Source of the DNA: Candidatus Latescibacterota bacterium
GTDB taxonomy: Bacteria; Latescibacterota; UBA2968
Direction of reading: 5' to 3'
DNA length: 64,000 nt
NCBI GenBank assembly: GCA_965214925.1
Contig: OZ244028.1
Coordinates: 3,592,205 to 3,656,204, forward strand
The notes below the pieces were generated by a model, which made no database searches, was not told the origin of the DNA, and saw only the letters and a program-made list of their open reading frames with translations. Below are positions 1 to 62,551 of the stretch, one piece after another. The translations under genes and the position numbers were made by a program. Every line of letters begins with the position of its first letter. Position 1 is the first letter of the stretch.

Positions 1-441
1 ACGGACATTGCAAACCTCAAGCGCAAAGTCGAATCCGGCGGCGATATCGTTATCACACAGCTTTTTTACAACAACGATCACTTTTTTCGCTTTGTCGATC
101 GCGCGCGCGCAGCCTACATCACCGCGCCCATTGTGCCAGGCCTTATGCCCATCCTCTCGGCAGGGCAAATCCAACGCATCGCGTCTTTGTGCGGGGCCGA
201 GATCCCCGTGGACTTGCAGGACCAACTCAACCGCGCCAGAGACGATAAAGACACGGCCGTGCAAATCGGCATTGATCAGTGCATTGCCCAAGCGACCCAA
301 TTGCTCGAACAAGGCGCGCCGGGCATTCACTTTTACGTGCTCAACCAATCCACCCACATGCGCCGCATTATCAACGCCCTTCCCCTGAGCGCGGATGAAA
401 AATTTACGTCATCTGCGGTCAAATCTGCGCTTGGGTTGTGA
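1..441 (+). CDS. metF: 5,10-methylenetetrahydrofolate reductase, C-terminal part; the gene is truncated at the window start
   Basis: Frame-1 translation TDIANLKRKVESGGDIVITQLFYNNDHFF...PGLMPILSAGQIQRIASLCGAEIP matches conserved MetF C-terminal blocks. Stop codon at 439-441. Confidence 0.85.
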   Translation, partial: TDIANLKRKVESGGDIVITQLFYNNDHFFRFVDRARAAYITAPIVPGLMPILSAGQIQRIASLCGAEIPVDLQDQLNRARDDKDTAVQIGIDQCIAQATQLLEQGAPGIHFYVLNQSTHMRRIINALPLSADEKFTSSAVKSALGL

Positions 442-819
442 AAGGACCAGTCTTTTGAATACCAAACTTTTCGACCCGAAATTGATTAACAAACCCACTT
501 CTAACCGATATGCCTTCAAGTAATTTAATGTCTGTGCCATGTGTGCATCTTCCAATGCAGAGATAGCTTTCAATTCTACCAATACTTTTCCTTCGACCAC
601 AAAATCGGCTCTGCGCGTGCCAATGGGCTCTGACAATTCTTTGTAGAAAATGTGTTGCTCAATTTCACGCGCAAATGCCAACCCCGCCTGTGTCATCTCA
701 AACGCCAAGGCCCGCTGATAAATGACCTCTTGGAAGCCATTGCCCAAAAATTTATGCACTTCAAAGGCTGCCCCAATAATTTTTTCCGTTATCTCGCGAT
801 ATTTCAGACTGTTGCTCAT
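409..819 (-). CDS. GxxExxY-family protein (PD-(D/E)XK-like fold)
   Basis: Motif GNGFQEVIYQRAL is the GxxExxY signature. The probable start is the internal MSNSLKY at 819 rather than the upstream extension. Confidence 0.7.
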   Translation of the reverse strand: MSNSLKYREITEKIIGAAFEVHKFLGNGFQEVIYQRALAFEMTQAGLAFAREIEQHIFYKELSEPIGTRRADFVVEGKVLVELKAISALEDAHMAQTLNYLKAYRLEVGLLINFGSKSLVFKRLVLSQPKRRFDRR

Positions 820-842
820 TATCTCTTTTTTCCTCCCCTGAT

Positions 843-945
843 CGCGGATTGTCGCGGATGAAAGGATTGCGCGGATTAAACCCATTCCCTCTGCACGACC
901 CGTAACGTCTAATCCGCGCCATCTGTGTCATCCCCCTAATCCGCG
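843..945. promoter_or_regulatory. Cluster of five 8-bp CGCGGATT/AATCCGCG motifs, three forward and two inverted
   Basis: Forward copies at 843-850, 853-860 and 870-877; inverted copies at 911-918 and 938-945. The cluster lies in the upstream region of the GxxExxY gene and the 3' end of the methyltransferase gene. Related copies occur at 25887-25912. Confidence 0.3.
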
Positions 946-3900
946 ATCCACCGCAGTAATTTCTTCCTCCGTCAGCCTGTATAGCCCATAGACTAATCGA
1001 TCTATCTCCCCTTCCTGCTCCCCGGTGTCCACCGCCGGGTCGTCCGCTTTAGCTTGCAGGATGCGCTCCACCAAGCGAATGAACGGACGCTGCTTTTCGG
1101 CAGGGATTCCAGGGATGGGGATGACTTCAACCGAACTGCGAATCCATCGAGTTACTCCCATTCCAGAATTGAGTGCCGTGTTCCCCATAAACCAAGTGAT
1201 CAGGCGGGAGTTGAGTATCGCGCATAGATACTTAATTGCTTGCCCAGACATTATAAAGCAAGTGTTCACGCAGAACATTTCACCTTCGTTATAGGCAAAT
1301 CGCCCTTGCTCTGTCAGATCCATCCATACCAGCTTTTCTTTGGCAAATTCGTCGTGGTAGGCGCAGTTGCGGAGATTGTAAGGTGTCTTGCCTTTGTCCT
1401 GCCGCTTTTCCAGTCTCTGATAGAACGTGTCCAGATGGGCTTTGATGGCCGGGTAATCGTCAATGTTGATAGCGGGAACATCGCCGTATCCGCTGTGCGT
1501 ATCAATCAGCCATAACCCCGCCCATTGTGCTTGATACTGCTGAATATCCCGGCCGCGTAGCACAGGCTTGATGATCTCCGCGGAGTTCGGGTCTTTGGTA
1601 ACAAGTACCTGCCGGGTCGCATTGTCTATTATAAAAGCATTGTTGTAGCCGGTCTTGATACCCATGTTAATGGACACATCCCATTCTTTTAGCGGCGTCC
1701 CAATGGCCTCTATCTTGTCCATCACGCTCTGTTCGGTAGCCGAAAGCGCACTCCACGGCTTTTCACCTTGTGGTCGGAACTGTCCCCAAAGACTCGCGTC
1801 GGGCGGGAAGGTTTTATCGGTCAGACGGTCCATATCCACGGCCTTGCCGGTCTCGCCACTTTTGCCGTGACGCACGATCAGGATGTTCGTATCCACAATG
1901 GCGTTTTCAAAAACGTCCTTGCCCATTTCCAGCAGTTGCAGCGGCGTATGTTTCTCCGCGAAATAGCGGCGCGTCGCCTTGCCGTATTCCGCCTTTAGCC
2001 AACTGTTGGACGTGATGTAAGACAGCAGGCCGTGCTGCGGCTTCAGCAGTTGGCAACCTTTCTCGTAGAAAAGCTGGTAAACGTCGCCGGTGCGGGCGAA
2101 GGTGGCGTAGCCAGCGTCTTTGTAGAGCCGCCCCAATTCGCCGCGGTTTTTCTGCAACTGGATATACGGCGGATTGCCAATCACCACATCGAAGCCATCG
2201 GCGATGCCAAACATATACTCAGCGTCGAACCAATCCGCCTTTGCGTTCTGATCGTAGGGATCCCAATGCGCGATTTTATTGGCGTCGTCCTCGGGCAGGC
2301 CGGCCGCGTTCAATTCCCTTGCCAATGCCTCGCGCAACCTTTTGTCCTCGTTCTTGCACGCCAGCTTTTGTGGTCGCGTGGTCGCGTGAAAATGCCGCTC
2401 GCGGTTTTCCGCCAGTCTCGTTTTCAGGGTCTCGATCTGTTGACGGAACAAGTCCAGTTGATCCGCATCTTCGAGCTTCAGTAGCGTATTGGCCGCCACA
2501 AAGCGCGTCTCCAGATTGGGCAGCGGCTTGATGCCGAAGTTATCCGCGGCCTCATCTGCTTCCTGCTCAATGGCTAGCGAAATGAAGAAGCGCAACTTGG
2601 CGATCTGACAGGCGATGGACTGAATATCGACACCGAAGATGCTGTTTTGGATCAGGTACAGCTTGCGCCCGAAATCCGAGTCGCGGTAGTGCTCAAAGGT
2701 CTCGCTGATCTCTTTGAGTTCGGCATCGCGATCTTCCCAATCGTCCGTTTCGTACGCCGACCTCGTCCGTTCCATCGCGAGCTCTTTTTGCAACTGCTCC
2801 CAGCGGCTGTTGTCGGGGTCGAGCCGTTTTAAGGCCAAGGTCAGTTTGTGCAACACGCCCATGGGAAACGCGCCAGAACCGACCGCCGGGTCGAGCACCT
2901 TGATCTCGGAAATCGTCCGCATAATCCCTGCCGCTTCGTCTGCCTCAAAAAGTTCATGGGCATCGTTGAACTCATCCTCATAATCCAACAAATAGCGCAG
3001 CCGTTCCTGCCAGAAATCGCGGTCGCCATCATCGGGTCGCGCTTTTTCCGTCAAAAACGCCACCAACGCCTCATCCACCATGTAGTCCACTACGGCGCGG
3101 GGCGTGTAGTAGGAGCCGGTCTGCTTGCGGGCGGTGTCGCGGGTCTCTGGGTTGTAGGCTGCCAACAGGTTCTCAAACACTTTGCCGAGAAGCTCCGGGT
3201 CGAGCGCGACTTCCTGTTCGGCGGGCGTGTTTTCCTCCACCGTGAACTTGTAGCGATTGAATAGGGTGATCAGCCCGTCGGCGCACCCTGAGCCTGCCGA
3301 AGCGTCGTCAAAGAACAGGCGGTTGGGAATGCTCAATTTGTGGTAATGGACGTCGGAAAAGCAGTCAATGCGCCAACCGCCATACGTTGTAGCCTCCTCG
3401 CTGTCCAAGCAGTCGAATAGCCCGCCGTTGATAAAGGGCGTTTGGCAAAACAAGGCCAAGAGCGCGTCCGGGTCGCGCATTTCTTGCTTGTAGCGATAGC
3501 GGGAGAAATCGCGGTGGGTGGCGTTTTTCACTTGGCTAAAACCGCGCGTGTCGATTTCGGTGTTGAGAGTAGCGAAAAACAGGTTTTGCAACACCGCGCG
3601 ATAATAGGAGTCGCCACCGTCGCGGTCATAGTTTTTCAGCAGAGGGCGGATTTGCGCCTCAATGAACAGGGCGTCGGCGATGAGTCCTTTTTCCTTGATG
3701 AACCAGACGAATAGCAGGCGGGTGATGAGACGGATGACGTGTTCTTCGGCGTGCAGAGTTCGCGCTTCGCTGGTCGGGAACCGCGCCTCGTTGACCGCGC
3801 GCTCAAACCATTCGTACAAGTCTCGGTAGAACCGCCGGTTCAGTTCCTCGGTGTCCAAGGCGTCCAGCCAAGCGTCTAACAGGCCGTCAAAATTGTGCGC

Positions 3901-4602
3901 TCTGTCGTGCTTGCTCATCCACCCCAAGCGGTCGTCCAACGCCAAGTCCGCCAGTATGTCGAGATGGGCGCGGTGTGGATCGGCCGGGTCGATCTCCCGT
4001 ATCAGCGACACACTGCCCAGCACATCGCGCTCGGGATCGCGCCGATGCGGGCGGCGGTGAACAAAGGACAGGGAGAGGAGGCTGTCAGCGGTCTTGAACA
4101 GCACCACGGCCGGCATTGGAAATCGCTTGTTGATCTCGCGGGTAAATGCGGCGTATTGGCCGCGGGGGTAGGACGTGCCCTTTAGCTCCACAGCGGCAAA
4201 GAGGAAGCTACGCGCGTTGCCTGTGTCAAAATCGCCCGTGTTGAACAGCGCACTTGAACTGCTGGCGCAGTTGTACCCCGGTGGCGCGGGCGCGACTTCA
4301 TCATCGGTCAACTGAAAAATGAGCCGCACGGATTGGGCGTTCTCGCGGAATGCCTGCTCGGTGTGAACTGCTGGCGCAGTTGTACCCCGGTGGGTGTTTT
4401 CATTGGACGCTGGGAATTGCTCGATAAAGTCATCCGCGCTTCCCGAAAGTGCCACCGTGCGCTCGCTCTGATAGCCGAGGACTTTGAGCAGGGCTTTGCT
4501 ATCCGACAAAAAATCCCCGTGAACTGCTGGCGCAGTTGTACCCCGGTGGGGCACAGCCGCCAAAGCAGACCGAATGCGCGCTATGAGATCGCCATTGCTC
4601 AT
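928..4602 (-). CDS. Type IIG/IIL-like restriction-modification fusion protein (MmeI/PglX-like): N-terminal PD-(D/E)xK nuclease, central N6-adenine methyltransferase, C-terminal target-recognition region
   Basis: Methyltransferase motif I LDPAVGSGAFP and motif IV VIGNPPYIQ. N-terminal GDFDTGN...FAAVELK gives a D...ExK nuclease motif. Total ~1,220 aa. The probable start MSNGDL at 4602 has an AAGGA ribosome-binding site and overlaps the upstream helicase stop as ATGA. Confidence 0.8.
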   Translation of the reverse strand: MSNGDLIARIRSALAAVPHRGTTAPAVHGDFLSDSKALLKVLGYQSERTVALSGSADDFIEQFPASNENTHRGTTAPAVHTEQAFRENAQSVRLIFQLTDDEVAPAPPGYNCASSSSALFNTGDFDTGNARSFLFAAVELKGTSYPRGQYAAFTREINKRFPMPAVVLFKTADSLLSLSFVHRRPHRRDPERDVLGSVSLIREIDPADPHRAHLDILADLALDDRLGWMSKHDRAHNFDGLLDAWLDALDTEELNRRFYRDLYEWFERAVNEARFPTSEARTLHAEEHVIRLITRLLFVWFIKEKGLIADALFIEAQIRPLLKNYDRDGGDSYYRAVLQNLFFATLNTEIDTRGFSQVKNATHRDFSRYRYKQEMRDPDALLALFCQTPFINGGLFDCLDSEEATTYGGWRIDCFSDVHYHKLSIPNRLFFDDASAGSGCADGLITLFNRYKFTVEENTPAEQEVALDPELLGKVFENLLAAYNPETRDTARKQTGSYYTPRAVVDYMVDEALVAFLTEKARPDDGDRDFWQERLRYLLDYEDEFNDAHELFEADEAAGIMRTISEIKVLDPAVGSGAFPMGVLHKLTLALKRLDPDNSRWEQLQKELAMERTRSAYETDDWEDRDAELKEISETFEHYRDSDFGRKLYLIQNSIFGVDIQSIACQIAKLRFFISLAIEQEADEAADNFGIKPLPNLETRFVAANTLLKLEDADQLDLFRQQIETLKTRLAENRERHFHATTRPQKLACKNEDKRLREALARELNAAGLPEDDANKIAHWDPYDQNAKADWFDAEYMFGIADGFDVVIGNPPYIQLQKNRGELGRLYKDAGYATFARTGDVYQLFYEKGCQLLKPQHGLLSYITSNSWLKAEYGKATRRYFAEKHTPLQLLEMGKDVFENAIVDTNILIVRHGKSGETGKAVDMDRLTDKTFPPDASLWGQFRPQGEKPWSALSATEQSVMDKIEAIGTPLKEWDVSINMGIKTGYNNAFIIDNATRQVLVTKDPNSAEIIKPVLRGRDIQQYQAQWAGLWLIDTHSGYGDVPAINIDDYPAIKAHLDTFYQRLEKRQDKGKTPYNLRNCAYHDEFAKEKLVWMDLTEQGRFAYNEGEMFCVNTCFIMSGQAIKYLCAILNSRLITWFMGNTALNSGMGVTRWIRSSVEVIPIPGIPAEKQRPFIRLVERILQAKADDPAVDTGEQEGEIDRLVYGLYRLTEEEITAVDRGLGG
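4255..4549. repeat. Three direct copies of a 30-bp palindromic element TGAACTGCTGGCGCAGTTGTACCCCGGTGG inside the 5' coding region of the methyltransferase gene
   Basis: Copies at 4255-4284, 4364-4393 and 4520-4549. The core AACTGC-TGGC-GCAGTT is a perfect 6-bp inverted repeat. Copies 2 and 3 are translated as HRGTTAPAVH. A fourth copy lies at 26959-26984. Confidence 0.8.
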
Positions 4603-5555
4603 GTCTGATCCTTTGCAATAATCAGCCATGTTACCAATTCAAAATCAACATGGCTCGGTTTTGTGGATTTAGCCGGCAGTCTGAAATCGCGCGAGCCGCG
4701 AATGCCCAATTGTCGGATTTGCCTTGCGGTGTTCGCCCCGCTGATGTGGGCAATGACCGCGTCCAACAATTTGTTGTAACGCGCCATGTCCCGGCCGTTT
4801 TGGGTATCGCTGTCAAACTGATCGCAAAGTCTTTGAAGCGGTTCGGTCTTGCCAACAGCCGCGGATTCAAACAACTCGAGCACCTGTCTGGCATTGGCAC
4901 AACCGTAGCGAATATCGCCTGTCTGCCGTGCCGGCACAGGCAGGCCGCTGTCGCGGATGTACACGGCATAGTACGGATGAATTGGGCTGGCGGATTTTTC
5001 CCGCTTGTCCGCGCCGGCATTGCGCTGGCGCAAAAAAAATATCGCGCCCGAGCGTGCGATGTCGCCCTTCCCGTCGGTTACGGCGTATGATCCGTTGGGC
5101 GTTGCTTCCAGTTCCGCCTTGTTTTTCTTCAAATACCGCAACAACTGGGCAAAAAAGTAATCGAGCGTAAAGTCGCTCATAACGACGCCGTCGGACAACT
5201 CGTCCAAGTCCAGAACCTCTTCGCGCATTTTCTTTAATTGCTCGTCGCGGAAGTTAAGCTCCATCTGAATCTGGTCAGCCGGGTCTTCGTTCAACGGATC
5301 GTCGTCGCCGCTACCCGCCGCGTCCGCCAAAGCCATGCGCGCTTCAACGCGGTTTCGCAGGCGCAAATAGACGTCCATGTCCCGCGTGGGCCAGTAGTTG
5401 ATCATTTGCACCGATGGGTTGCGACTGCCAATGCGGTCAACGCGCCCGAAACGCTGGATGATACGCACCGGATTCCAGTGGATGTCGTAGTTGAGCACGG
5501 TGTCGCAATCTTGCAGGTTCTGTCCCTCCGAAATGCAATCGGTGGCAATCAGCAA
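4599..5555 (-). CDS. SNF2-family helicase, C-terminal (helicase C) fragment; the downstream half of a frameshifted PLD-SNF2 gene
   Basis: LIATDCISEGQNLQDCDTVLNYDIHWNP...QRFGRVDRIG matches SNF2 motifs V and VI. The frame is open upstream of the annotated Met (..ATDIDGEIDLLIATD) and is +1 relative to the upstream ORF. Confidence 0.7.
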   Translation of the reverse strand: MLIATDCISEGQNLQDCDTVLNYDIHWNPVRIIQRFGRVDRIGSRNPSVQMINYWPTRDMDVYLRLRNRVEARMALADAAGSGDDDPLNEDPADQIQMELNFRDEQLKKMREEVLDLDELSDGVVMSDFTLDYFFAQLLRYLKKNKAELEATPNGSYAVTDGKGDIARSGAIFFLRQRNAGADKREKSASPIHPYYAVYIRDSGLPVPARQTGDIRYGCANARQVLELFESAAVGKTEPLQRLCDQFDSDTQNGRDMARYNKLLDAVIAHISGANTARQIRQLGIRGSRDFRLPAKSTKPSHVDFELVTWLIIAKDQT

Positions 5556-5556
5556 A

Positions 5557-7887
5557 TCAATTTCGCCATCTATGTCGGTCGCGGGCGCGCCCGCGCGCCC
5601 GCGGCGCGAAGTTGGTCAAGATCGCGTTGAAATTATTGTCGCCAAACGCGGTGCGCGTGGCGTCGCCACAGACCATCGCCATGTGTATCTCGAGTTCGTT
5701 TGCCAAATCCGCCAAGTTCTCGTAAAGGTATGCCGCCGTGTCCTTGAATGTGGTGAACACCAGCATTTTGCGGTTGGTCTTGCCATCCTCGTCCATCGTC
5801 GGATTTCGCGCCTTGTCCCGAATGCGCGCCTTAATCGCTTCGAGCTTGCCGTCCCGCTCGGGCGTGATCTCGGCGACCTTTTTCCACACCGCGGTCAGAA
5901 CTTTTTTGTCGTTGAGCAAATCCTTCTTCCAGCGGGGCAAATCCAACTCGCGCAGGTGATAGGGCGTGCGCGCCCGATTGATCAGAAACTCCTCGTCGTC
6001 CTCGTCGTCATTCGGGAGGATGTCGGCTTGTTCGTCCAACAGCAGGTTTTGCCCATAGCGGTCTATCTTTTTTAACAGATCGTCAATTTTGCCGACCGTG
6101 CGCCCGAGGGTTTCCGTCAGCGCGTGCGCGGAACTCTCCAAGCGTTTGAGAAAGTTCGTCCGCATCATGCCGATGAGGAATCGCTCGCGGTCCTCCTGAT
6201 TGAACCGCAGTTGCTTTTTTTCATTCGCCAACCGCTTTTTTGCCTCTTCGCCGGTGACATAGCCAGATGGCCGGTAAATGGACAGGGCGAATTGCCCGAT
6301 TTGCTCGGACAAATCCCGATAGGAAAGTTCGCGCGTGACGTCGGTCAGCGGATAGCCATTTTCCGGCGGCAACTGCGTGGGAAAATCGCCGATGCGGTGC
6401 ATTTCCTCGGCATAGAACGTCTCGATCTGTCGCCGCGAGCGCGCGATGGAAACGCCGCCCAACAACAACAAAAAATCAGCCCCCAGCGAATCCAACAACT
6501 CGCCCTTGTCTTTTTTTTTCGCGTTGGACTCCCAGGCCTTGAACTCCTTTTGCGCCTGTCCGAGCAAGGTGCCGATATGTCCAATGCCCAGACTTTCCCG
6601 GAACACATCCTCGCGCTTTTCGGTCATCAGATAAATCTGATTGCGGAGGTCGATGAGCGAGGTATTGACCGGCGTCGCGGAAAGCATCAGCACCTTGGTT
6701 TGCGTGCCTTCTTTGATCACTTCCTCCAACAGCCGCGAGTAGCGGCTGTGGCGAATTTTGCCATCATCGTCCAATCGGGGCTTGGTATCATTGCGGAAGT
6801 TGTGCGATTCGTCAATGACCACCACATCGAGATTGCGCCAGTTGAAATTTGCCAGATCAATATCGCCGGCTCGTCCCCTGCTGCGAGACAAGTCCGTGTG
6901 CGACAACAACGTGTAGCCAAAGCGATCCGCGGCAAAAGGATTGTGGGCATGGGCGTTATACACCGGATATAGCGCCCAGTTTTCGCGCAGCTTTTTGGGG
7001 CACAAGACCAGCACGCGCTCGTTTCGCAACTCAAAGAACTTGATCACCGCCAACGCCGTGTAGGTCTTTCCCAAGCCCACGCTGTCGGCCAAGATGCAGC
7101 CGTTGTGCCGCAACAAACGGGCGATCGCGCTTTTGGCGCCGTCTTTCTGAAAGCCGTACAGCGCGTTCCAAATCCGCGTGTCGTACAGGTGCGTATCCTC
7201 GAGTTGGCTTTCGCCCTTTTGTCTGTCTTCTATATCTGCCCGAAACAACTCGTAGAGCGTTTTGTAATAGATAAATTCCGGCGCGCAGTCTTTGCCGATT
7301 CGCGCCAGCGCGGCCAACACCTCCTTTTTGACATCCACAGTCAACGCGCGGTCTGCCCACAGGTCGTCAAACCACGCGCGCAGTTCCGCGCAGATTTCCG
7401 CGTCGCAGGTCGCCAGGTTGATTTCCATATTTGCGCGCGTCCCCCCGCCCAAGCCGCTGCGCGTGAAGTTGGAACTGCCGACCACCGCTGCGCCGCGGTT
7501 GGGCGATTCCGCGAGATACATCTTGCCATGCAGAAAATTGGATTTGCCGACAGAGCGGATTTTGACCCCTTTGCCGCGCACCCATGCGGCGCATTGCCGC
7601 GCCACATATTTCTGCTGCAACGCGCGATTCGGCGAGAGTCTGCCTTCGGTCAGGTCAAAAAATTTCCGCGCGCGCTCGCCGGGGTCCAACTCGCCAACCG
7701 ATGCCGGATCTCCAAAGAGAAACCGCACATCCCCGACGCGGGCGAGCGCGTCCTTCAGCAATTCATAGCCGTAAATGGTAAAATACGCGGAAACCAGCCT
7801 GAATACCTTCGCGGAGGGCAAATGTCCGCGCAGATAATCCGCGACCCGCTCGCGGCGATTGTCCAGAATGTGTTCGTATTTTTGCAT
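5557..7887 (-). CDS. PLD-family nuclease domain fused to an SNF2 helicase N-terminal ATPase domain; the upstream half of the frameshifted gene
   Basis: HKD motif HGKMYL...GSSNFT. Walker A GLGKTYT, DEAH-like VVIDESHNFRN and motif III LMLSATPV. Start MQKYEHIL at 7887 follows a GGGGGAG ribosome-binding site. The ORF terminates inside the GC repeat at 5581-5608. Confidence 0.75.
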   Translation of the reverse strand: MQKYEHILDNRRERVADYLRGHLPSAKVFRLVSAYFTIYGYELLKDALARVGDVRFLFGDPASVGELDPGERARKFFDLTEGRLSPNRALQQKYVARQCAAWVRGKGVKIRSVGKSNFLHGKMYLAESPNRGAAVVGSSNFTRSGLGGGTRANMEINLATCDAEICAELRAWFDDLWADRALTVDVKKEVLAALARIGKDCAPEFIYYKTLYELFRADIEDRQKGESQLEDTHLYDTRIWNALYGFQKDGAKSAIARLLRHNGCILADSVGLGKTYTALAVIKFFELRNERVLVLCPKKLRENWALYPVYNAHAHNPFAADRFGYTLLSHTDLSRSRGRAGDIDLANFNWRNLDVVVIDESHNFRNDTKPRLDDDGKIRHSRYSRLLEEVIKEGTQTKVLMLSATPVNTSLIDLRNQIYLMTEKREDVFRESLGIGHIGTLLGQAQKEFKAWESNAKKKDKGELLDSLGADFLLLLGGVSIARSRRQIETFYAEEMHRIGDFPTQLPPENGYPLTDVTRELSYRDLSEQIGQFALSIYRPSGYVTGEEAKKRLANEKKQLRFNQEDRERFLIGMMRTNFLKRLESSAHALTETLGRTVGKIDDLLKKIDRYGQNLLLDEQADILPNDDEDDEEFLINRARTPYHLRELDLPRWKKDLLNDKKVLTAVWKKVAEITPERDGKLEAIKARIRDKARNPTMDEDGKTNRKMLVFTTFKDTAAYLYENLADLANELEIHMAMVCGDATRTAFGDNNFNAILTNFAPRARGRARDRHRWRN

Positions 7888-7922
7888 CTTGCTCTCCCCC
7901 CTCAATGAGCAGTGTTTTGCCC

Positions 7923-21004: not shown

Positions 21005-21538
21005 ATGCGGGAAACGACCAATGCGATGAAGGTGCGGGAACTCATGCGGCATCTCGGCGCGGAGGCGAGAGGCGAAGGCCGTATTTACCTCGTCGGTGGG
21101 AGTTCCGCGGTGCTGCTGGGCTGGCGGATGACCACCGTGGATGTCGATCTCAAGATCGACCCAGAACCCGTCGGTGTCTTTGATGCGATTGCACGCGCCA
21201 AAAATATCTTGAACATAAATGTCGAACTGGCGGCTCCCGACGACTTCATCCCCGCCCTTCCCAACTGGCGCGAGCGCAGCGCGTTCATCGCCCGGTACGG
21301 ACAGATCGATTTTTTCCACTACGACTTCTACGCGCAAGCACTCGCGAAGATCGAGCGCGGCCATGAACAGGATCTGCGCGATGTCCAAGCGATGCACCGG
21401 GAACGATTGATTGAACCGACGCGTCTGACCGCGCTTTTCAGTGCCATAGAGCCGACTTTGGTGCGCTATCCCGCGATTGATGCCGCGTACTTCCACGAGA
21501 AGGTGCAAAAAGCGGTGATCGCGATGGGAAAACAATGA
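21005..21538 (+). CDS. Nucleotidyltransferase-fold protein (Pol-beta superfamily, minimal-NTase-like)
   Basis: VGGSSAV...VDVDL fits the hG[GS]-x(9-13)-DxD NTase signature. ATGA overlap with the next gene. Confidence 0.5.
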   Translation: MRETTNAMKVRELMRHLGAEARGEGRIYLVGGSSAVLLGWRMTTVDVDLKIDPEPVGVFDAIARAKNILNINVELAAPDDFIPALPNWRERSAFIARYGQIDFFHYDFYAQALAKIERGHEQDLRDVQAMHRERLIEPTRLTALFSAIEPTLVRYPAIDAAYFHEKVQKAVIAMGKQ

Positions 21539-22137
21539 CCAAAGTACCTGAAAATCTGCCCGGCGCGGATCTCGTTGCGTCGGGCATCGAAGCCTTGCAG
21601 CGCGGCGAGACCACGGTTGAGGCCTTGCTCGTCGCCATCGGTGCGCCGCGTTTGCGCGCGGCCGGACTGGAAATTCCCCACGCGCCGGGATTGCCCGACC
21701 AGCCAGAACTCGCCCTCTATACGGCCCTCGGTGCCATGTATCCCCGAGATACGCACTCGCGCTACAATGGTCTTATTCGCCGCCTCGTCAGCTTTGAGCG
21801 CGCACTCGAGCACTTGGTCGCACGGGGTGAGTCGCGCGCTTTGGACGCAACGGCTGACGAATTTCGTTTAACAGACGATCACCAGGAACCCCAACTGAAG
21901 AGGAACAACGACCTGACAGACTATCGGGACCGCATCACTATCGCACCGGGTAAACGCGGCGGAAAGCCTTGCATCCGCAACATGCGAATCACGGTTTACG
22001 ATGTGCTGGAATGGCTGGCTTCCGGCATGAGCGAAACCGAGATTCTGGCGGATTATCCGGAACTGACCCAAGAGGACATCCGAGCCTGCTTGGCTTTCGC
22101 CGCTGATCGAGAACGCCAACTGGTTGCACTGTCTTGA
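21535..22137 (+). CDS. DUF433 domain protein (antitoxin-like C-terminal domain) with an unidentified ~120-aa N-terminal region
   Basis: C-terminus ITIAPGKRGGKPCIRNMRITVYDVLEWLASGMSETEILADYPELTQEDIRACLAFA matches DUF433. Confidence 0.5.
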   Translation: MTKVPENLPGADLVASGIEALQRGETTVEALLVAIGAPRLRAAGLEIPHAPGLPDQPELALYTALGAMYPRDTHSRYNGLIRRLVSFERALEHLVARGESRALDATADEFRLTDDHQEPQLKRNNDLTDYRDRITIAPGKRGGKPCIRNMRITVYDVLEWLASGMSETEILADYPELTQEDIRACLAFAADRERQLVALS

Positions 22138-22528: not shown

Positions 22529-23365
22529 ATGTCAGCACATGCTTTGAAAGGCGCGATGTTTCGCGATAAAGTGGCGATCATTACGGGCGCGTCTTCGGGC
22601 CTGGGGGCCGCGCTGGCACTGGAACTGGCGAAACGAGGTACGCACTTAGCCCTGTTTGCGCGGCGCGAGGCAAAGCTCGCGGAGACAACCGAACGGTGTC
22701 GATCATGGGGTGTGTGCGCGCGCCCTGTGACAGGCGATGTCACACAGGCCGAGCATTGCGAACACTTGATCGACGCGGCGATAACAGAATTTGGTCAAAT
22801 AGATTATTTGATCGCCAATGCCGGGATCAGTATGTGGGCGCGATTTGACGAGGTGGAAGATCTGGGCGTGTTTCGGAAATTAATGGAGACAAATTATCTC
22901 GGTCTGGTCTATTGTGTGCATTCGGCATTGCCCTATCTGAAAGCTTCAAAGGGCATGCTGGTGGGCATTGCTTCTGTGCAGGGCAAAATTAGCGTGCCCC
23001 TGCACACGGGGTATGCCGCGTCAAAACACGCTGGGGTGGGTTTTTTGAACGCCCTGCGGATGGAAGTCGATGATGTACACATATTGACGGTCTTGCCGCA
23101 CTGGCTTCAGGGAACGAATTTGAGACAGAGCGCCTTTGGCAAAGATGGCGAAGCACTCGGCGCATCCTCACAGCGACACAATAAAGAGTCAATTTCCACA
23201 AAAAATTGTTGCAACGCTATTTTGAAAGCCATAATAAAACAAAAGCGCGAACTCGTGATCCCATGGAAACTCCGTACCCTGCCCTGGCTGCAACTGATCC
23301 ACCCCAAAATTGTCGAATGGCTGGTGAAGGACAAGATGAAGGATCAAGAGTCAAATGGCTGGTGA
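22529..23365 (+). CDS. Short-chain dehydrogenase/reductase (SDR)
   Basis: ITGASSGLG and YAASKHA. The 3' end carries a ~40-bp imperfect tandem duplication. Confidence 0.8.
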   Translation: MSAHALKGAMFRDKVAIITGASSGLGAALALELAKRGTHLALFARREAKLAETTERCRSWGVCARPVTGDVTQAEHCEHLIDAAITEFGQIDYLIANAGISMWARFDEVEDLGVFRKLMETNYLGLVYCVHSALPYLKASKGMLVGIASVQGKISVPLHTGYAASKHAGVGFLNALRMEVDDVHILTVLPHWLQGTNLRQSAFGKDGEALGASSQRHNKESISTKNCCNAILKAIIKQKRELVIPWKLRTLPWLQLIHPKIVEWLVKDKMKDQESNGW

Positions 23366-23469: not shown

Positions 23470-25365
23470 ATGAACCCACAAGTATCCATTCCCAAGACTC
23501 AGATCGCTTCGTTTTGTCAAGCTCGAGGAATCAAGCGGCTTGCCATCTTCGGTTCTGCACTGCGTTCCGATTTCGGGCCGGACAGCGATATCGACGTGCT
23601 CGTCGAATTTGAGCACGGCCACACGCCCGGATTCTTGGGGCTCGCCGACATATCGGCCGACGACCTTGAAGGTATGCTGGAAGATGACTCCGATGTTGCC
23701 GATATCGCAGGGGCAACTGGAGGGACATCTGAAAATGTACAGCGAGAGCTCGCATTGCTTAACCACGCCATCGCAGAGTTAGAACAAGTTGAAGACGACT
23801 CCAAAGCACAAGTACTTGTTGAACAACTTACTGAGATATTCAACAATCACGCGAACGAAAAAGTGATTGTGTTCACCCAGTTTCGTGAGACTCAGCGCTA
23901 TCTTGAGGAAAAACTCAGAGAGCGAGGTTGGGGTGTCAGTCTTTTCCATGGGCAATTGAACCCCAAAGAAAAGGATCGCGCTGTGGAGCGTTTTCGCGAT
24001 GGCACCGGCCCGCAAGGCCCGCAAGTACTCATCAGCACAGAGGCGGGCGGGGAAGGGCGAAACTTGCAGTTCTGTCATCTGCTGGTCAACTATGACTTGC
24101 CTTGGAACCCGATGAAAGTCGAGCAACGCATCGGCAGAATCGACCGCATCGGGCAGAACCACCCAATTAGCATCTTCAATTTTGGGGTCAAGGATACCAT
24201 TGAGGATCGTGTACTCGAGGTATTGGAGAATCGTATCAGATTGTTCGAAGATACTGTGGGCGGCCTCGACCCAATTCTCGGCGATGTCGAGAGCGATAGT
24301 AAGAAAATCATGCGCGTCGCTGAAGATAAACGAGAGGCAGCTATCGCCAAATTAGGAAAGCGCGTGGAGGAAGATATACGCAACGCCAGGGAAGCAGGGG
24401 AACTGCTTGACGACTTCATTATGGACACAAAGTCGTACCGAAAAGAAATAGTCGAGCGTATCTTAGGGCAACCCTCGCCTGTTAACAATGACGACTTTGA
24501 GCAGTTTATTGGACAGAGCCTCGCCGATGTACGCACATACATCAAACAAACCGGAGATATGTACGAGTTGACTTTCCATGGTGACTTTTTCGATACCCAT
24601 CAGCGGCATCTCTTTCCCAGGGGACGGAAAATGAGGGCGGTGTTCCGTCCAGACAGCCGGTCCGACGCGGAGGATGTCGAATTTATGGCCTTCGGCCACA
24701 AAATCGTCAATGTCATTGTCGAACAAATTCTCAACGAGGAATATGAAGGAGTGACCGGCACCCGTCGCATTGCTGCGGACAGCGACCTATCTCCCACAGC
24801 CGGGTGGCTTTTCACCTACCAGTTCACCACGTCTGGTGCGCGTCCCATCGAAAAGGTCATGCCGGTTTTCGTGAGCGATAGTGGCGAGATTGATTTGCAG
24901 ACAGGACACCATCTTTTGCGGCGTGCTTTCCGGTTTGACAGCACAGAGACAGAAATCAATCGGGATGAGATTCCCAACAATCTTAACGAGAGTTATTCTC
25001 GGGCAGATGGGTTCGCTAACGCGGAGAGGGAGAGAATCCAGCGGAAGGCACAACAGGAGGCCACAGAGAGGGCTGACCGGGAAGTCTCCAGGATCGAGAA
25101 GTTATTCGACTATAAAGAACGTGGAGCTAGCGATAAGGTGAAAGCTGCTCGAACCACGCTGAATTGTCTTCGAGAAAGTGGCGATGAGTCGCAGCGTCAG
25201 ATTTTGCCTGTCTGGGAAGCCAATTTACGACGGGCCGAGGAATTATCCGCCAAATTGGCCGAAGATCGCTGTCGTCAGATTGCTGAGGTGGAGAAATATC
25301 GTCACCCACAAGTTGATTGGGCACTGAAGTCACTCGGCCGTATTGAGGTGGTAGTTCGCAAATAG
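23470..25365 (+). CDS. Chimeric ORF: truncated minimal nucleotidyltransferase N-terminus fused to the C-terminal half of a RapA/HepA-like SNF2 helicase; no DEXH ATPase N-domain
   Basis: AIFGSALRSDFGPDSDIDVLVEF (NTase) then VIVFTQF...VLISTEAGGEGRNLQFCHLLVNYDLPWNPMKVEQRIGRIDRIGQ (helicase C motifs IV-VI). No Walker A/B anywhere in the ORF. Confidence 0.6.
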   Translation: MNPQVSIPKTQIASFCQARGIKRLAIFGSALRSDFGPDSDIDVLVEFEHGHTPGFLGLADISADDLEGMLEDDSDVADIAGATGGTSENVQRELALLNHAIAELEQVEDDSKAQVLVEQLTEIFNNHANEKVIVFTQFRETQRYLEEKLRERGWGVSLFHGQLNPKEKDRAVERFRDGTGPQGPQVLISTEAGGEGRNLQFCHLLVNYDLPWNPMKVEQRIGRIDRIGQNHPISIFNFGVKDTIEDRVLEVLENRIRLFEDTVGGLDPILGDVESDSKKIMRVAEDKREAAIAKLGKRVEEDIRNAREAGELLDDFIMDTKSYRKEIVERILGQPSPVNNDDFEQFIGQSLADVRTYIKQTGDMYELTFHGDFFDTHQRHLFPRGRKMRAVFRPDSRSDAEDVEFMAFGHKIVNVIVEQILNEEYEGVTGTRRIAADSDLSPTAGWLFTYQFTTSGARPIEKVMPVFVSDSGEIDLQTGHHLLRRAFRFDSTETEINRDEIPNNLNESYSRADGFANAERERIQRKAQQEATERADREVSRIEKLFDYKERGASDKVKAARTTLNCLRESGDESQRQILPVWEANLRRAEELSAKLAEDRCRQIAEVEKYRHPQVDWALKSLGRIEVVVRK

Positions 25366-25556
25366 CACCCTCCATACTTAAGGAAAGCCTATATTTTTTT
25401 TCATACCCGCCTGCCAACAATGTGGTGAGAAATATTTGACCACTGCTGCCGCAAAAGAGATTGAGCACCACACCGATTCAAACACGGATAAAGTCTCTGG
25501 ATAAATCTCATCGCCCTTTTTGAACTCATCTCATTATGAGGTGGGTTTTCTTTTTT

Positions 25557-25585
25557 AGCTATTGGCTATCAGCTTTCAGCCCGTC
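25557..25585. repeat. Dispersed element, copy D: AGCTATT-GGCTATCAG-CTTTCAG-CCCGTC
   Basis: Sequence similarity to copies at 14776, 29614 and 31874. Confidence 0.5.
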
Positions 25586-25793
25586 TCTCAAACCCTCTGG
25601 ATTCCGGCTTTCATCACCACAGACTTTTCACCTGAATGACGCGATTGCTGTCCCTTGTTCATCTCTGTTCATCCGTGGTTGCGTCTTACCTCTCGCGCCT
25701 GCCCCTGACGGCCCTGCCTACTGCCAGACAGTGCATTTGGCTTTTTTGTTTTCGGGCGGGCACAGGGGCCGCGCCTCTACCCTCGTGTCTTTC

Positions 25794-25823
25794 TGCACTT
25801 TGCACTTTGCACTTTGCACTTTG
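25794..25823. repeat. Microsatellite (TGCACTT / CACTTTG), about 4.3 tandem copies
   Basis: ctgcactttgcactttgcactttgcactttg read directly. It sits inside a ~380-bp CT-rich non-coding block (25540-25930) that also contains the AATCCGCG motifs. Confidence 0.85.
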
Positions 25824-25954
25824 TCTGACCTTTCGCTTTTCATCCGCGTTCATCTGCATTTATCAGTGGTTGCTTTTCGCTTTTCATCCGCGCAATCCGC
25901 GTCATCTGCTTAATCCGTGATCCGCCTTTTATCTTTCGCGTCTTACCTCTCTAT

Positions 25955-26969
25955 GTCAACCCATTGGACAATCATTGCAAATCCCGTTTCGGGACGGGGC
26001 CGTGCAAAACGCATGGGGGAGTTGGTCGCGGATTTATTGCACAATCGAGGTGTAGGTGCTGACCTGATGGTGTCGGAGGCACCGGGCGAGTGTGAACGCC
26101 TCGCGCGAAAAGCATTGGCGCGGGGCGTGCGACAGGTTGCAGCGTGTGGCGGGGATGGCACAGTCCATGAAGTGGTCAACGGCCTCGCAAATTCAGACGC
26201 TGTTCTAGGGATTGTGCCCTGTGGCCGAGGGAATGATTTGGCGCGCGCATTGGATCTGCCCAAAGATGTGAACCGCGTGGTCAATACGCTGGTGCATGGC
26301 GCGGATCGCGCGATTGATCTGGGAAAAATGAACTGCTGTCGCAATGGGACACCGCTTGGCGATCGGTTTTTTGCGACCATTGCGAGTTTGGGATTCGACA
26401 CCGCAGTCGCACAAAGGACGCGGTCTCAGTCACCTCGCTCTCGAGCTTTGGGATGGGGCGGAACCGCATCTTATGGACTGGCGATTTTGCAAACGCTAGT
26501 GGGATATCGGTCTCCGATGGTGCGCTTGAGAGGAGATTTTGGTATTTTTGAAGGGCGTATTCTGCTGGTTGCAACGGCAAACGCGCCGTTTTATGGGAGC
26601 GGAATAAAAATTGCCCCTCACGCCGTGGTCGACGACGGAATGCTGGACGTGTGCATTGTGGCAGATGTGCCGCGCCGGACGGTTTTGCGACTCTTTTCAA
26701 GCGTGTATTCCGGCGCACACGTCGACCACCCTGCGGTGCATATCGCGCGAACCAAAACCTTGCAGATTGAAGCGGTGGATACCTGCGATAGCCGTTCAGC
26801 CGATGATCCCATGTGGGTATTTGCCGATGGCGAACCCATGTGTGAGATTCCTGCAAAAATCGAGGTCGTTCCCAACGCGCTGACTGTGAAAACAATGCGA
26901 ATGTACGACGCGAGACGCAAGAGGCGAGAGGCCCCCAAAACCCCTGCCTGTGCGCCGATGAACTGCTGA
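25955..26969 (+). CDS. Lipid kinase, diacylglycerol-kinase catalytic-domain family (YegS/BmrU-like)
   Basis: ANPVSGRG, ACGGDGTVHEV and GRGNDLAR blocks. The start could be 25917 or 25955. The stop TGA lies inside repeat copy 4. Confidence 0.75.
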
Positions 26970-31873: not shown

Positions 31874-31904
31874 GAGCTATCAGCCTTCAGCTTTCAGCCC
31901 CGCC
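31874..31904. repeat. Dispersed element, copy C: GAGCTATCAG-CCTTCAG-CTTTCAG-CCCCGCC
   Basis: Lies immediately upstream of the ribosome-binding site of the Gfo/Idh/MocA gene on the minus strand. Confidence 0.6.
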
Positions 31905-32457
31905 TTTCCGCCCCAATCAGCGTAAAAGGTGCTTGCTTTGCTGACCGCCGACCACTTTCATGCGCCAACAGAAATTTTTTCTTTTTTATTCCCCCGGCAT
32001 ATCCCGTCAAATCGCCAGACGCGCCAATCACGCGGTGGCACGGCACCACAATCGCCACCGGATTGTTGCCATTGGCCGCGCCCACTGCTTGCGCTGCCCC
32101 AACGCTACCCAACGCGCGCGCGATATCGCCATAAGTTCGCGTCTCTCCAAAGGGAATTTTCAGCAACAATTTCCATACCCGCTTCTGGAAATCCGTTCCG
32201 TGCAAATCCAATGGCAAATCAAAAATTTTCAGCGTCCCGTCAAAATATATTGTCAGTTGCTCAACCGCCGCATCGATCACCGCATGCGCCACTGCCCGAG
32301 GCAAACCTATCTTCGCCCGCGCTGCTCGTTCACCCTCAAACGCAATTGCCCGCACCCCATCATCCGACGCCAACACGGTCAACGGCCCCAATGGACTCGC
32401 CACCTCGCCCCAAACCGTCTCCCCTGGCAATTTTTTCACACGCTGTAAGTCAAACAT
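31894..32457 (-). CDS. ogt: Methylated-DNA-[protein]-cysteine S-methyltransferase
   Basis: IVVPCHRVIG active site (PCHR) and HTH region. Probable start MFDLQR. Confidence 0.8.
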   Translation of the reverse strand: MFDLQRVKKLPGETVWGEVASPLGPLTVLASDDGVRAIAFEGERAARAKIGLPRAVAHAVIDAAVEQLTIYFDGTLKIFDLPLDLHGTDFQKRVWKLLLKIPFGETRTYGDIARALGSVGAAQAVGAANGNNPVAIVVPCHRVIGASGDLTGYAGGIKKKKFLLAHESGRRSAKQAPFTLIGAERRG

Positions 32458-32663
32458 GTCGCGCCTCAATTTCTCGATACATGGTCTTATATTGGGCAAC
32501 CCCTGTGGTTGCCCCTACGGGGTTGGGGGATTGGGGGACTTTCTCACTTCTCACTTCTTGAGGTCTCTCAAACCCGCGAACGCAGGACCTCGGCATACAA
32601 GTGTCGGCAGAACTGACGTTGTGATCGGTGCGCGCCACTAGGACAATGTCAATTCTTCTTGGA

Positions 32664-62183: not shown

Positions 62184-62551
62184 GGGGGCGACATGGTTTC
62201 GACGGGGGTGGAGCGGTGATGGCCGCGTGTCGAGGTGCCCGATTCCCTCGTAAAACAATTGGGAAAAAACGCAAGTGCGGACGATAACACGTACGCAATG
62301 GCTGCCTAACCAACCGTTACGCAGTCCGTTCTGCTAGGCCTCGCCTGCGTGGTCTGGACAGAGCGCCGACGAGAGCAGGCTGGTTCGGGGGTTTCCGCTC
62401 GAGGCCCTCCGGGCGAAATAAAATCGGGCTGGCATCTCAGCGCCCCTGTCTGTTGGGGCGCGGGGTGTGAGATTCCATAAATAGACTACACACGTAGACG
62501 CCATTGTCAAACTGCTTTCGGACGCGGGTTCGATTCCCGCCGCCTCCACCA
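62184..62551 (+). ncRNA. ssrA: tmRNA (SsrA)
   Basis: 5' GGGGGCGACAUGGUUUCGACGGG and 3' T-arm GGUUCGAUUCCCGCCGCCUCCACCA form a tRNA-Ala-like acceptor. Internal tag frame ..ASADDNTYAMAA ends at a TAA stop. Confidence 0.85.

Follow-up and report, generated by a model that had tools for sequence, protein, structure and literature searches.

Directly upstream of a DAGK/YegS-type lipid kinase gene, the 64,000-bp stretch of contig OZ244028.1 from Candidatus Latescibacterota bacterium (assembly GCA_965214925.1; the whole stretch is called the window below) carries a CT-rich block of about 390 bp that shares short motifs with a second locus of the window, located at a gene for a GxxExxY protein. What is this block, and why do two unrelated accessory loci have motifs in common? 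They do so because both carry pieces of one repeat family: the block holds a genuine solo arm of a widespread repeat that canonically lies at the flanks of GxxExxY genes. It is a strain-specific insertion of intergenic repeat debris, not a gene and most probably neither a small RNA (sRNA) nor an operator array. We consider it probable that this non-coding insertion is a mostly inert relic composed of the solo arm, terminator-like debris and a local microsatellite, and that GxxExxY genes together with their arms constitute a selfish cassette.

The octamer AATCCGCG was found 15 times in the window (6.9 expected) and the heptamer ATCCGCG 49 times (21.9 expected); much of this excess lies in coding sequence and is uninformative. 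An octamer pair at 58691 and 58710 is located inside an mfd-like open reading frame (ORF) and is not a significant arm (E 2). Clusters of at least three ATCYGYG units within 45 nt were present at only three places of the window, 390-429, 843-945 and 25842-25919, and dinucleotide shuffles yielded 0.02 such clusters per 64 kb. Positions 25886-25923 of the block and 912-949 of the other locus share a 38-nt arrangement, AATCCGCG-N-CATCTG-N(2 or 11)-TAATCCGYGATCC, which at both loci represents four units at 9-bp spacing, a structure we call an arm. The first-pass annotation had reported five copies of the octamer at 843-945, three forward and two inverted. The sharing was confirmed, but the exact octamer is present there in four copies, two forward and two inverted, and it is ATCCGCG that occurs five times, twice forward and three times inverted.

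An arm was defined as a run of three to four tandem 9-bp units (nAATCCGCG-like, also nCATCYGYG) ending in a short tip. In the canonical form, 5'-tip-(CGCGGATn)n-gene-(nATCCGCG)n-tip-3', the gene encodes a GxxExxY PD-(D/E)XK nuclease of about 125 amino acids (aa), and forms without the gene are single arms or hairpins (arm-loop-arm) of about 100 nt. Within the window there are one gene-bearing copy (390-952) and a detached arm at 25885-25927 (plus strand). The latter was recovered by profile match and array scan and comprises four tandem 9-bp units (CATCCGCGC AATCCGCGT CATCTGCTT AATCCGTG) followed by the tip GATCCGCC; its units are TMATCCGCG-like, and it ends in GATCC. Unit copies in the block are located at 25841 and 25885 (CATCCGCG), 25894 (AATCCGCG) and 25912 (AATCCGTG).

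To search beyond the window, one genome per species (596 Gb) was scanned with the pattern ATCCGCGNCATCTGN{2,11}WAATCCGYG, which has 20 fixed and two 2-fold positions. At least 119 genome loci were obtained, compared to about 3 expected by chance according to our own calculation. Among the matches listed were many metagenome-assembled genomes (MAGs) labelled Poribacteria or Latescibacteria, as well as Planctomycetes, Chloroflexi, Verrucomicrobia including Akkermansia muciniphila, Acidobacteria (Pyrinomonadaceae, Blastocatellia), Bacteroidota (Saprospiraceae, Cytophagales, Bacteroides), Cyanobacteria, a Dolichospermum and an Obscuribacterales genome, Thiotrichaceae, and others. The arm family is spread over more than ten phyla, and the first-pass suggestion of a common mobile or recombinogenic sequence is supported insofar as both window loci carry arms of this one family, which canonically brackets GxxExxY genes. 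The pattern gave 0 matches in viral contigs. Some of the listed matches, e.g., at loci L025 and L057, look like coincidences in coding sequence, and crude ORF calling placed the arms of about 100 of 121 listed sites in intergenic regions. Match lengths among the matches listed were mainly 25 and 34 nt and thus differed by one 9-mer unit. An inverted arm was present within 110 nt upstream in 44 of the 121 listed sites and downstream in 5, which indicates 5'-(CGCGGATn)n-loop-(nATCCGCG)n-3' as the preferred full form. Gene-less hairpins of 88-115 nt were found both next to genes and standing alone. Solo arms were located between 23 minus-strand and 17 plus-strand gene pairs, and this lack of strand preference argues for an element acting at the DNA level rather than as RNA.

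An nhmmer profile built from 121 arms of other genomes was then run on the window. The best match was 25890-25925 (plus strand, E 7.4e-10), followed by 905-952 (plus, E 1e-8), 839-884 (minus, E 9e-4) and 407-434 (plus, E 1e-3); nothing else in the 64 kb fell below E 0.1. The two best arms fit the fetch pattern by construction, and the other two matches and the flanking columns are independent of it. The arm profile detected no significant inverted arm near 25890, and a GxxExxY profile compared with all six frames of 25366-25952 revealed no gene remnant; the block therefore holds a solo arm. The tip (A/G)TTCAGACA is not present on the window arms, which end in GATCCGCC, GATCCACC and GATCAGGG. 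Tips of the window-type variant also occur in L004, L094 and L122, and an intermediate, GATCCAGACA, in L206-L209.

The association of arms with GxxExxY genes was supported by several comparisons. A tblastn search against the arm-seeded loci identified 10 more GxxExxY genes (46-81% identity, one in Dolichospermum), nine of which were flanked on either side by unit clusters at a distance of up to 100 nt; L058, the tenth, had one cluster and is cut by the end of the locus. As these loci had been chosen for having an arm, a separate sample of 80 metagenome loci was taken by protein similarity only. About 36 of the 39 homologues with at least 72% identity carried units of the inverted type in the 200 nt upstream and units of the forward type in the 230 nt downstream, at a background density of 0.08 units per 200 nt. 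In a motif-free test, the best local inverted repeat formed by the two flanks of the gene was scored against 60 shuffles. Its score was above that of all shuffles in 49 of 65 loci (31 of 33 close and 18 of 32 distant homologues) and in 3 of 73 pseudo-sites on the same contigs. Tip-to-tip pairs 250-3000 nt apart, taken over all loci, enclosed a GxxExxY ORF in 33 of 39 cases.

The canonical layout of these cassettes is TTGTCTGAAT-CACGGATTA-AAAGGATTA-AAAGATTAC..ATG...stop..ATCTGTGAA-ATCCATAA-ATCCGTG-ATTCAGACAA. Distant homologues have a like layout built from other units, GTCTGAAC-CATGATTAA... on the left and ...AATCATGG-GTTCAGACA on the right. The tip-proximal sequence GTCTGAAT-CRCGGAT was present in 21 of 37 close and 0 of 40 distant homologues, although the median GC content of the host flanks was 0.38 in both groups, showing that the arm type follows the protein clade and not the base composition. 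Copies annotated as located on plasmids or chromids carry AATCC-type, CACGGATTCG-type and TCTCTGTG-type units. A plasmid collection contained few close copies, and the distant GxxExxY genes present there had analogous flanks of different units. GxxExxY genes are multi-copy in many genomes. Homologues formed at least 8000 clusters at E<=1e-10, the top 120 of which were 77-100% identical and labelled Bacteroidota, Eremiobacterota, and others.

The status of the block as an insertion follows from its neighborhood. The kinase gene (25953-26969, Pfam), whose ATG at 25953 was placed by homology (P0004 and other homologues), is separated by a spacer of 587 bp from the stop codon of ORF 23470-25365 and is followed by an ABC ATPase gene. 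Kinase homologues of about 75% identity are present in large circular metagenome contigs, three of which (L001-L003) were compared. The lipid gene cluster is kept in all of them, but the gene or genes just before the kinase differ: GH3 in two relatives and a full 1087-aa SNF2 helicase plus extra ORFs in the third. The site is thus a hotspot of gene turnover. Each of the three relatives has a terminator hairpin (ACTCATCTCAT...GAGGTGAGTTTTCTTTTT) 10-20 nt before the kinase ATG. In the window this conserved hairpin is present at 25522-25548, but about 390 additional bases separate it from the ATG (alignment A1). Relative to L001-L003, the block (25561-25951, plus strand) is therefore an insertion that has no counterpart in the three genomes, relatives that are only about 75% identical in the kinase. 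Its native left edge is the intrinsic terminator of the upstream helicase remnant (25522-25557, plus strand), which was detected by terminator scan as a 12-bp stem with a T-run (dG -14.2, z -3.7). No clean case of a site empty of arm or cassette was found among the loci compared.

In agreement with the first-pass annotation, the block is CT-rich and non-coding: plus-strand C+T amounts to 67% in 25540-25930 and 52% window-wide, and the ORFs across it (25536-25913, 25636-25920 and 25686-25859, minus strand; 57-125 aa) gave no match in a Pfam scan even at E<=1. Partial duplications, some of which it had noted, were recovered by repeat search, namely GCGTCTTACCTCTC with copies at 25681 and 25938, the 18-mer TTTCGCTTTTCATCCGCG at 25831 and 25875, and a 26-nt segment doubled at 25657 and 25848 with 81% identity. 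The heptanucleotide repeat was confirmed by Tandem Repeats Finder (TRF) as (TGCACTT) x4.3 with 100% identity at 25794-25823. Much of the 3' part of the block proved to belong to a larger unit, as 25761-25935 is a copy of a composite repeat that is also present in the related MAGs L004, L122, L094 and L019 (alignment A2, blastn, L004 sequence). The composite repeat is built from a GC hairpin that carries a T-rich tail (GCACAGGGGCCGCGCCCCTACGTTTTTATTTT in L004 and L122), a set of three degenerate 10-bp units, the linker TTTTCGCYTTTC, and a 9-bp arm ending in GATCCGCCTTT. In the MAFFT alignment A2, the decayed tail of the window copy contains a 42-nt window-specific insertion compared to L004 and L122, and the (TGCACTT) tract lies within it. 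The microsatellite is therefore a local expansion and not a conserved feature; relatives lack the tract altogether (A1, A2).

From left to right on the plus strand, the features of the block are as follows. Positions 25565-25595 hold two short modules, GCTATCAGCTTTCAGCCC and GTCTCTCAAACCC, which recur at 31876-31900 and 32563-32575; each singly is near chance expectation, and their collinearity is suggestive at most. The modules (GCTATCAGC..TTTCAGCCC and GTCTCTCAAACCC) abut in the block and are 690 nt apart at 31876/32563, where they flank an O6-methylguanine methyltransferase (MGMT) gene (31894-32499, minus strand). Order and strand are kept, and p is about 0.01-0.02 by a rough estimate. A tentative candidate for a degenerate inverted partner (CCTGAATGACGCG-ATTGC) of the arm portion 25892-25905 is located at 25633-25651; it emerged from long-range pairing in the minus-strand minimum-free-energy fold and is not detected by the arm profile. 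Degenerate 10-bp units (GTTCATCTCT GTTCATCCGT GGTTGC; repeat families D1, D2 and D4) followed by the first GCGTCTTACCTCTC copy occupy 25657-25694. A terminator-like hairpin, GCCAGACAGTGCATTTGGC, and then TTTTTTGTTT were found by terminator scan at 25723-25751, the hairpin itself spanning 25723-25741. The GC hairpin (GGGGCCGCGCCTC) with its decayed T-rich tail (25761-25793) has its homologue in L004 and L122, where it forms the terminator-like head of the composite repeat (A2), and the microsatellite forms the next segment. At 25831-25884 a direct repeat of TTTCGCTTTTCATCCGCG flanks degenerate 10-bp units (TTCATCCGCG TTCATCTGCA TTTATCAGTG); this segment is homologous to L004 4135-4090 and matches the arm profile weakly (E 0.23). 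The second TTTCGCTTTTCATCCGCG copy, at 25875, extends to 25892 and hence into the solo arm. The second GCGTCTTACCTCTC copy (25938-25951) lies directly 5' of the kinase ATG.

The gene-bearing copy of the window is centered on a GxxExxY/PDDEXK_3 nuclease gene (412-822, minus strand; Pfam PF13366, 3e-36; TIGR04256, 1e-38), which sits between the arms 390-434 and 839-952 and encodes a protein with intact motifs GFQEVIY and D...ELK. The complete hairpin form at 839-952 (inverted arm 839-884, loop, forward arm 905-952) is located directly upstream of the gene and overlaps the 3' end of a type IIG restriction-modification (RM) gene. The fold of 836-960 is very stable on the two strands, with dG values of -48.7 and -56.5 kcal/mol (z -6.4 and -5.6). 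Just 3' of the GxxExxY stop codon, a small hairpin or arm remnant (CGCGGATGA...TCATCTGCG) at 390-434 was identified by cluster scan (fold z -2.6). L206-L209 have a full hairpin at the latter position and an orthologous hairpin at that of 839-952, and their GxxExxY proteins are 90% identical to the window protein; the window cassette is orthologous to theirs. A 104-nt indel in the hairpin loop separates strains L207/L209 from L206/L208, and an AAA_15-TIR gene pair located between the RM gene and the hairpin in L206-L209 is missing from the window. In the 20-kb loci L001-L003 and L206-L209, arms were found only beside the GxxExxY gene.

Both window arm loci are located in defense contexts, one next to the type IIG RM and HKD-Snf2 genes and the other next to a remnant of a BrxH/DrmD-like helicase. 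The type IIG RM enzyme (928-4629, minus strand, 1232 aa) runs with its 3' end into arm 905-952, and L207 and L209 contain a copy of the RM 3' end (LYGL.EEE-coding) just before the hairpin. The HKD(PLD)+Snf2 defense helicase gene (4599-7905, minus strand) is apparently split into ORFs 5557-7905 and 4599-5555, and L206-L209 have an unsplit 1101-aa protein. At the block, ORF 23470-25365 is chimeric according to Pfam and PADLOC. Residues 1-93 represent an MNT-type nucleotidyltransferase fragment (NTP_transf_2/PDC-S09), joined in frame to the C-terminal half (from Helicase_C on) of a BrxHI/DrmD-like SNF2 defense helicase, which in relative L003 is intact at this position (1087 aa). The chimeric ORF looks like a deletion or recombination product. 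It is preceded by a short-chain dehydrogenase gene (22529-23365, Pfam/PADLOC). Further upstream, at 21005-22137, a toxin-antitoxin-like pair of a DUF6036 nucleotidyltransferase and a DUF433 protein is located inside the conserved lipid cluster (fatty acyl reductase, FAD oxidase, dehydrogenase, kinase); in place of the pair, the relatives have only a short DUF433 gene, or nothing. The intergenic regions of L001 (9780-9895) and L002 (9905-9930) contain tandem repeats of their own, six copies of the 12-mer CCGGGGAAGTTG followed by CCACCCAAGTTA-type units, which indicates that the pre-kinase spacer is repeat-prone across the clade.

For the GxxExxY protein itself, no PADLOC model matched and a PDB sequence search gave only spurious weak Pcc1 matches. 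An AlphaFold model based on a low-diversity alignment of 35 sequences reached a pLDDT of only 50.

Several further observations concern the arms and cassettes of other genomes. Within operons the cassette is tightly packed: the stop codon of the upstream ORF, which is often an HsdS C-terminus, falls at or in the left tip (GTC-TGA), and the right tip runs directly into the ATG of the next gene, often an HsdR N-terminus (GTTCAGACA-ATG). By eye, cassettes were often wedged between type I RM genes (L174, L177, L180, L184, L201, L203, and others), with upstream ORFs ending in ...VTGKIKV (HsdS-like) and downstream ORFs starting with MS.IHTE.TFESAIIEHL (HsdR-like). In L128, L134-L136, L140, L141, L151, L154 and L183, the 3' end of the upstream gene is directly duplicated over 60-90 nt, and the duplicates abut both tips. 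The duplicated ends encode a histidine-kinase C-terminus and, in L183, belong to another gene, and in L128 another left arm follows the second duplicate copy. Such duplications, a lead at most, could have arisen as a long duplication of the target or by homing in which a gene end was carried along; two perfect cases coincide with contig ends and are possibly assembly artifacts. Higher-order tandem arm arrays are present in L065 (5905-6238, Dolichospermum), L087 (5478-6122) and L009/L053/L096 (Saprospiraceae); arrays with periods of 75 nt and 112 nt occur by GxxExxY genes, and one Saprospiraceae MAG contains long runs of 10-13 units with TTCCAAAAAA spacers. In L077 and L095 (OY282377.1, labelled Latescibacteria), arms lie 125-270 nt from TnpB-like ORF remnants (..VCDCGYETDRDLNAATNI..) and flank an Rpn/PDDEXK_2-like gene of 317 aa; the arm plus 70 nt of upstream flank repeats about 1.7 kb apart. 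Reading through arms creates spurious ORFs, such as the 125-aa ORF 25536-25913 and the N-terminal extension MGLIRAILSSATIRDQGRKKEI of the GxxExxY ORF 409-885 (minus strand), and arm arrays elsewhere give repetitive pseudo-proteins of the IRVIRVIRV.. type, e.g., in L009.

We propose that GxxExxY gene and arms would travel jointly as a small selfish cassette and that the arms are probably the DNA recognized by the GxxExxY nuclease. In that case, the hairpins and solo arms would represent derivatives, either non-autonomous or decayed, which insertion, deletion and recombination may have left in hotspots of gene turnover and defense genes. The remnant in front of the kinase gene is most likely a relic without dedicated function. 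Its only plausible effect is one of separation, as about 390 bp with two additional terminator-like hairpins lie between the kinase and upstream transcription.

A number of results weigh against this interpretation. The scan pattern comes from the two arms of the window itself, and the chance figure was calculated by us and is not a program output. The first 200 nt or so of the block (25561-25760) had no match in the sequences searched. No mobility event of arms or cassette was observed. Neither does the window cassette have a target-site duplication, nor was a consistent short one evident at 26 hairpins, where the best flanking direct match was 0-5 nt without a preferred length. The orthologous cassette in L206-L209 indicates vertical inheritance in this clade, and the restriction of the relatives' arms to the vicinity of the gene argues for a modest proliferation in this lineage. 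Binding of the arms by the GxxExxY protein is purely what we infer, and the block may have a regulatory effect on the kinase.

The arm family was compared with known systems of similar appearance, the closest analogy being REPIN-RAYT. Like the repetitive extragenic palindromic (REP) sequences and REPINs associated with RAYT genes (PMC3337134, PMC3116915), arms are short intergenic repeats that occur as inverted hairpin doublets and as singlets, they flank a small single gene, and gene-less derivatives outnumber the gene. The flanked gene, in contrast, belongs to PF13366/TIGR04256 and encodes a PD-(D/E)XK (PDDEXK_3) protein and not a Y1 HUH transposase as in RAYT. An arm is an array of direct 9-bp sub-repeats that ends in a tip, whereas REP sequences are imperfect palindromes of 20-40 bp with a GTAG/CGTC tag. 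REPIN-RAYT systems are described as vertically inherited (PMC3337134, PMC3116915). For GxxExxY genes, in contrast, the conservation of gene and arms at 77-90% across phyla implies horizontal spread. A survey paper (PMC3733652) contains none of the arm motifs.

Miniature inverted-repeat transposable elements (MITEs) and small insertion sequences (IS) resemble the cassette in having inverted TG...CA-like tips (TGTCTGAA...TTCAGACA) around a single ORF, ORF-less hairpin derivatives of 90-115 nt and intergenic insertions. Terminal inverted repeats are present at the family level (49/65 versus 3/73), and the block itself has one end only. The cassette differs from these elements in having no recognized transposase and no consistent short target-site duplication, with 60-90-nt 3'-end duplications at some loci instead, and the window arms lack the TTCAGACA tip and end in GATCC(G/A)CC. 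The ends of Tn7 and Mu contain multiple subterminal binding sites, and TnsA is a PD-(D/E)XK nuclease. Tandem co-oriented short repeats in each inverted end and an element-encoded PD-(D/E)XK enzyme would be parallels worth following as a lead, but the arm element, only about 0.5 kb long, has neither a DDE transposase nor targeting proteins, and a 5-bp target-site duplication is absent. Integron cassettes likewise contain small, promoter-poor ORFs separated by foldable imperfect inverted repeats (attC sites), with toxin-antitoxin and defense-type neighbors being common. The arm sequence is conserved across phyla, whereas attC sites are not. An assignment to attC was rejected, as inspection revealed no RYYYAAC/GTTRRRY core sites at the cassette ends, which read TTGACC.../...GGTCAA, GTCTGAA.../...TTCAGAC or GATCC, and no integrase was found among the annotated ORFs beside the window loci. 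An origin of replication was also rejected: one DnaA box-like sequence with 1 mismatch to TTATCCACA lies near the block (25496) and none within it, and origin-like skew is absent, with cumulative GC skew peaking rather than dipping near 28-30 kb, where genes converge. Membership in REP, MITE/IS, attC, replication origins or Rfam families fails in each case on defining features that were tested.

A more far-reaching version of the cassette interpretation, which we regard as possible but put forward only tentatively, is that the GxxExxY gene and two arms represent an autonomous mobile element not yet described that has spread horizontally across more than ten phyla. With a size of about 0.5 kb it would be among the smallest known, its sole protein being the PD-(D/E)XK nuclease of about 125 aa. 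It would insert at gene ends within operons and defense islands, the left tip providing the upstream gene with a TGA stop codon and the right tip abutting the next ATG, and in some insertions 60-90 nt of the target gene's 3' end may be duplicated as well. The solo arm 25885-25927, like the other solo arms and the hairpins, would descend from it as non-autonomous progeny.

Alternatively, the arms could be generic REP-like host repeats into which GxxExxY genes insert preferentially, with the block being merely the remainder after a defense-gene deletion. In line with this idea, arms far outnumber genes (162 clusters versus 11 genes in 874 kb), and PIN, TIR, ParB-like and Rpn-like genes are also found between arms in some loci. 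The turnover hotspot before the kinase and the truncated helicase adjoining the block fit as well. The dependence of the arm type on the protein clade and not on host GC, the presence of the same arms around proteins that are 77-90% identical in different phyla, and the 33 of 39 tip-bounded cassettes that contain GxxExxY are more easily explained if gene and arms move as one unit; we judge a pure recombination scar unlikely. For the block itself, this explanation and the preferred cassette interpretation do overlap.

That block or arms function as RNA, either as an sRNA, as suggested in the first-pass annotation, or as a cis-acting leader or a processing or stability hairpin for neighboring mRNAs, appears improbable. 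The stability of the 836-960 hairpin on both strands would be in accord with such a role, and a long-range stem around the GxxExxY ORF could be closed by the canonical arms, in a manner resembling 23S rRNA intervening sequences, whose stems also enclose an ORF. For the block, however, no fold signal was obtained (z +0.4 for 25826-25935; -0.46 and -0.41 for the two strands of the whole insert). An Rfam scan of the whole window at gathering thresholds reported the tmRNA at 62184-62551 alone, a search of 25300-26000 at E<=10 gave chance-level snoRNA and leader matches only, and eight related loci had no relevant match. The absence of strand bias of solo arms relative to transcription and the strand symmetry of the inverted architecture are as expected of a DNA element. 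The suggestion of an sRNA is thus supported neither by an Rfam match nor by excess folding energy (z -0.4 to +0.5).

Even less credible is an operator array, in which the 9-10-bp units would be sites of a shared transcription factor co-regulating the kinase and GxxExxY genes, in keeping with the common DNA-binding regulator proposed in the first-pass annotation. The arrangement of the units as direct and inverted repeats with a period of 9-10 bp immediately before two start codons, in clusters far above chance, is what such an array would look like. Against it, the same arms occur in unrelated intergenic contexts of more than ten phyla, on either strand relative to their neighbors (23 versus 17 co-directional pairs), and are equally frequent on the downstream and the upstream side of genes. 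Three relatives lack them in front of the orthologous kinase gene, in the relatives of the window they lie only beside the GxxExxY gene, and no regulator gene is linked to them. Nothing was found in support of a common regulator. Least credible of all is a contingency locus in which slippage of (TGCACTT)n switches or tunes kinase expression: the perfect 4.3-copy heptamer lies upstream of the kinase and the same intergenic region of L001 and L002 contains 12-mer tandem repeats, but the copy number is low, the tract is about 130 nt from the ATG inside the decayed terminator tail of a repeat, and neither promoter-like hexamers beside it nor a sigma-70-like promoter anywhere in the block were found.

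These results remove a candidate regulatory or sRNA locus from the window: as a feature of this genome, the block is ordinary debris. In the literature searched for the motifs, the tips, GxxExxY, PDDEXK_3 and four-helix-bundle/IVS proteins, the repeats are not described, although database comments and subscription journals may hold them, and the arm element family looks undescribed. The GxxExxY family (PF13366/TIGR04256) is very large and of unknown function; the only comment on PF13366 found in the literature searched reads "function unknown, multiple transfers" (PMC3424549). The bracketing of its genes by arms, the match between arm type and protein clade, and the scattered detached arms lead to a testable hypothesis of what the GxxExxY protein targets. 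The sequence signature also allows the annotation of repeats that are now translated into spurious ORFs. The motif shared by the two loci is the visible end of an apparently uncharacterized cross-phylum element.

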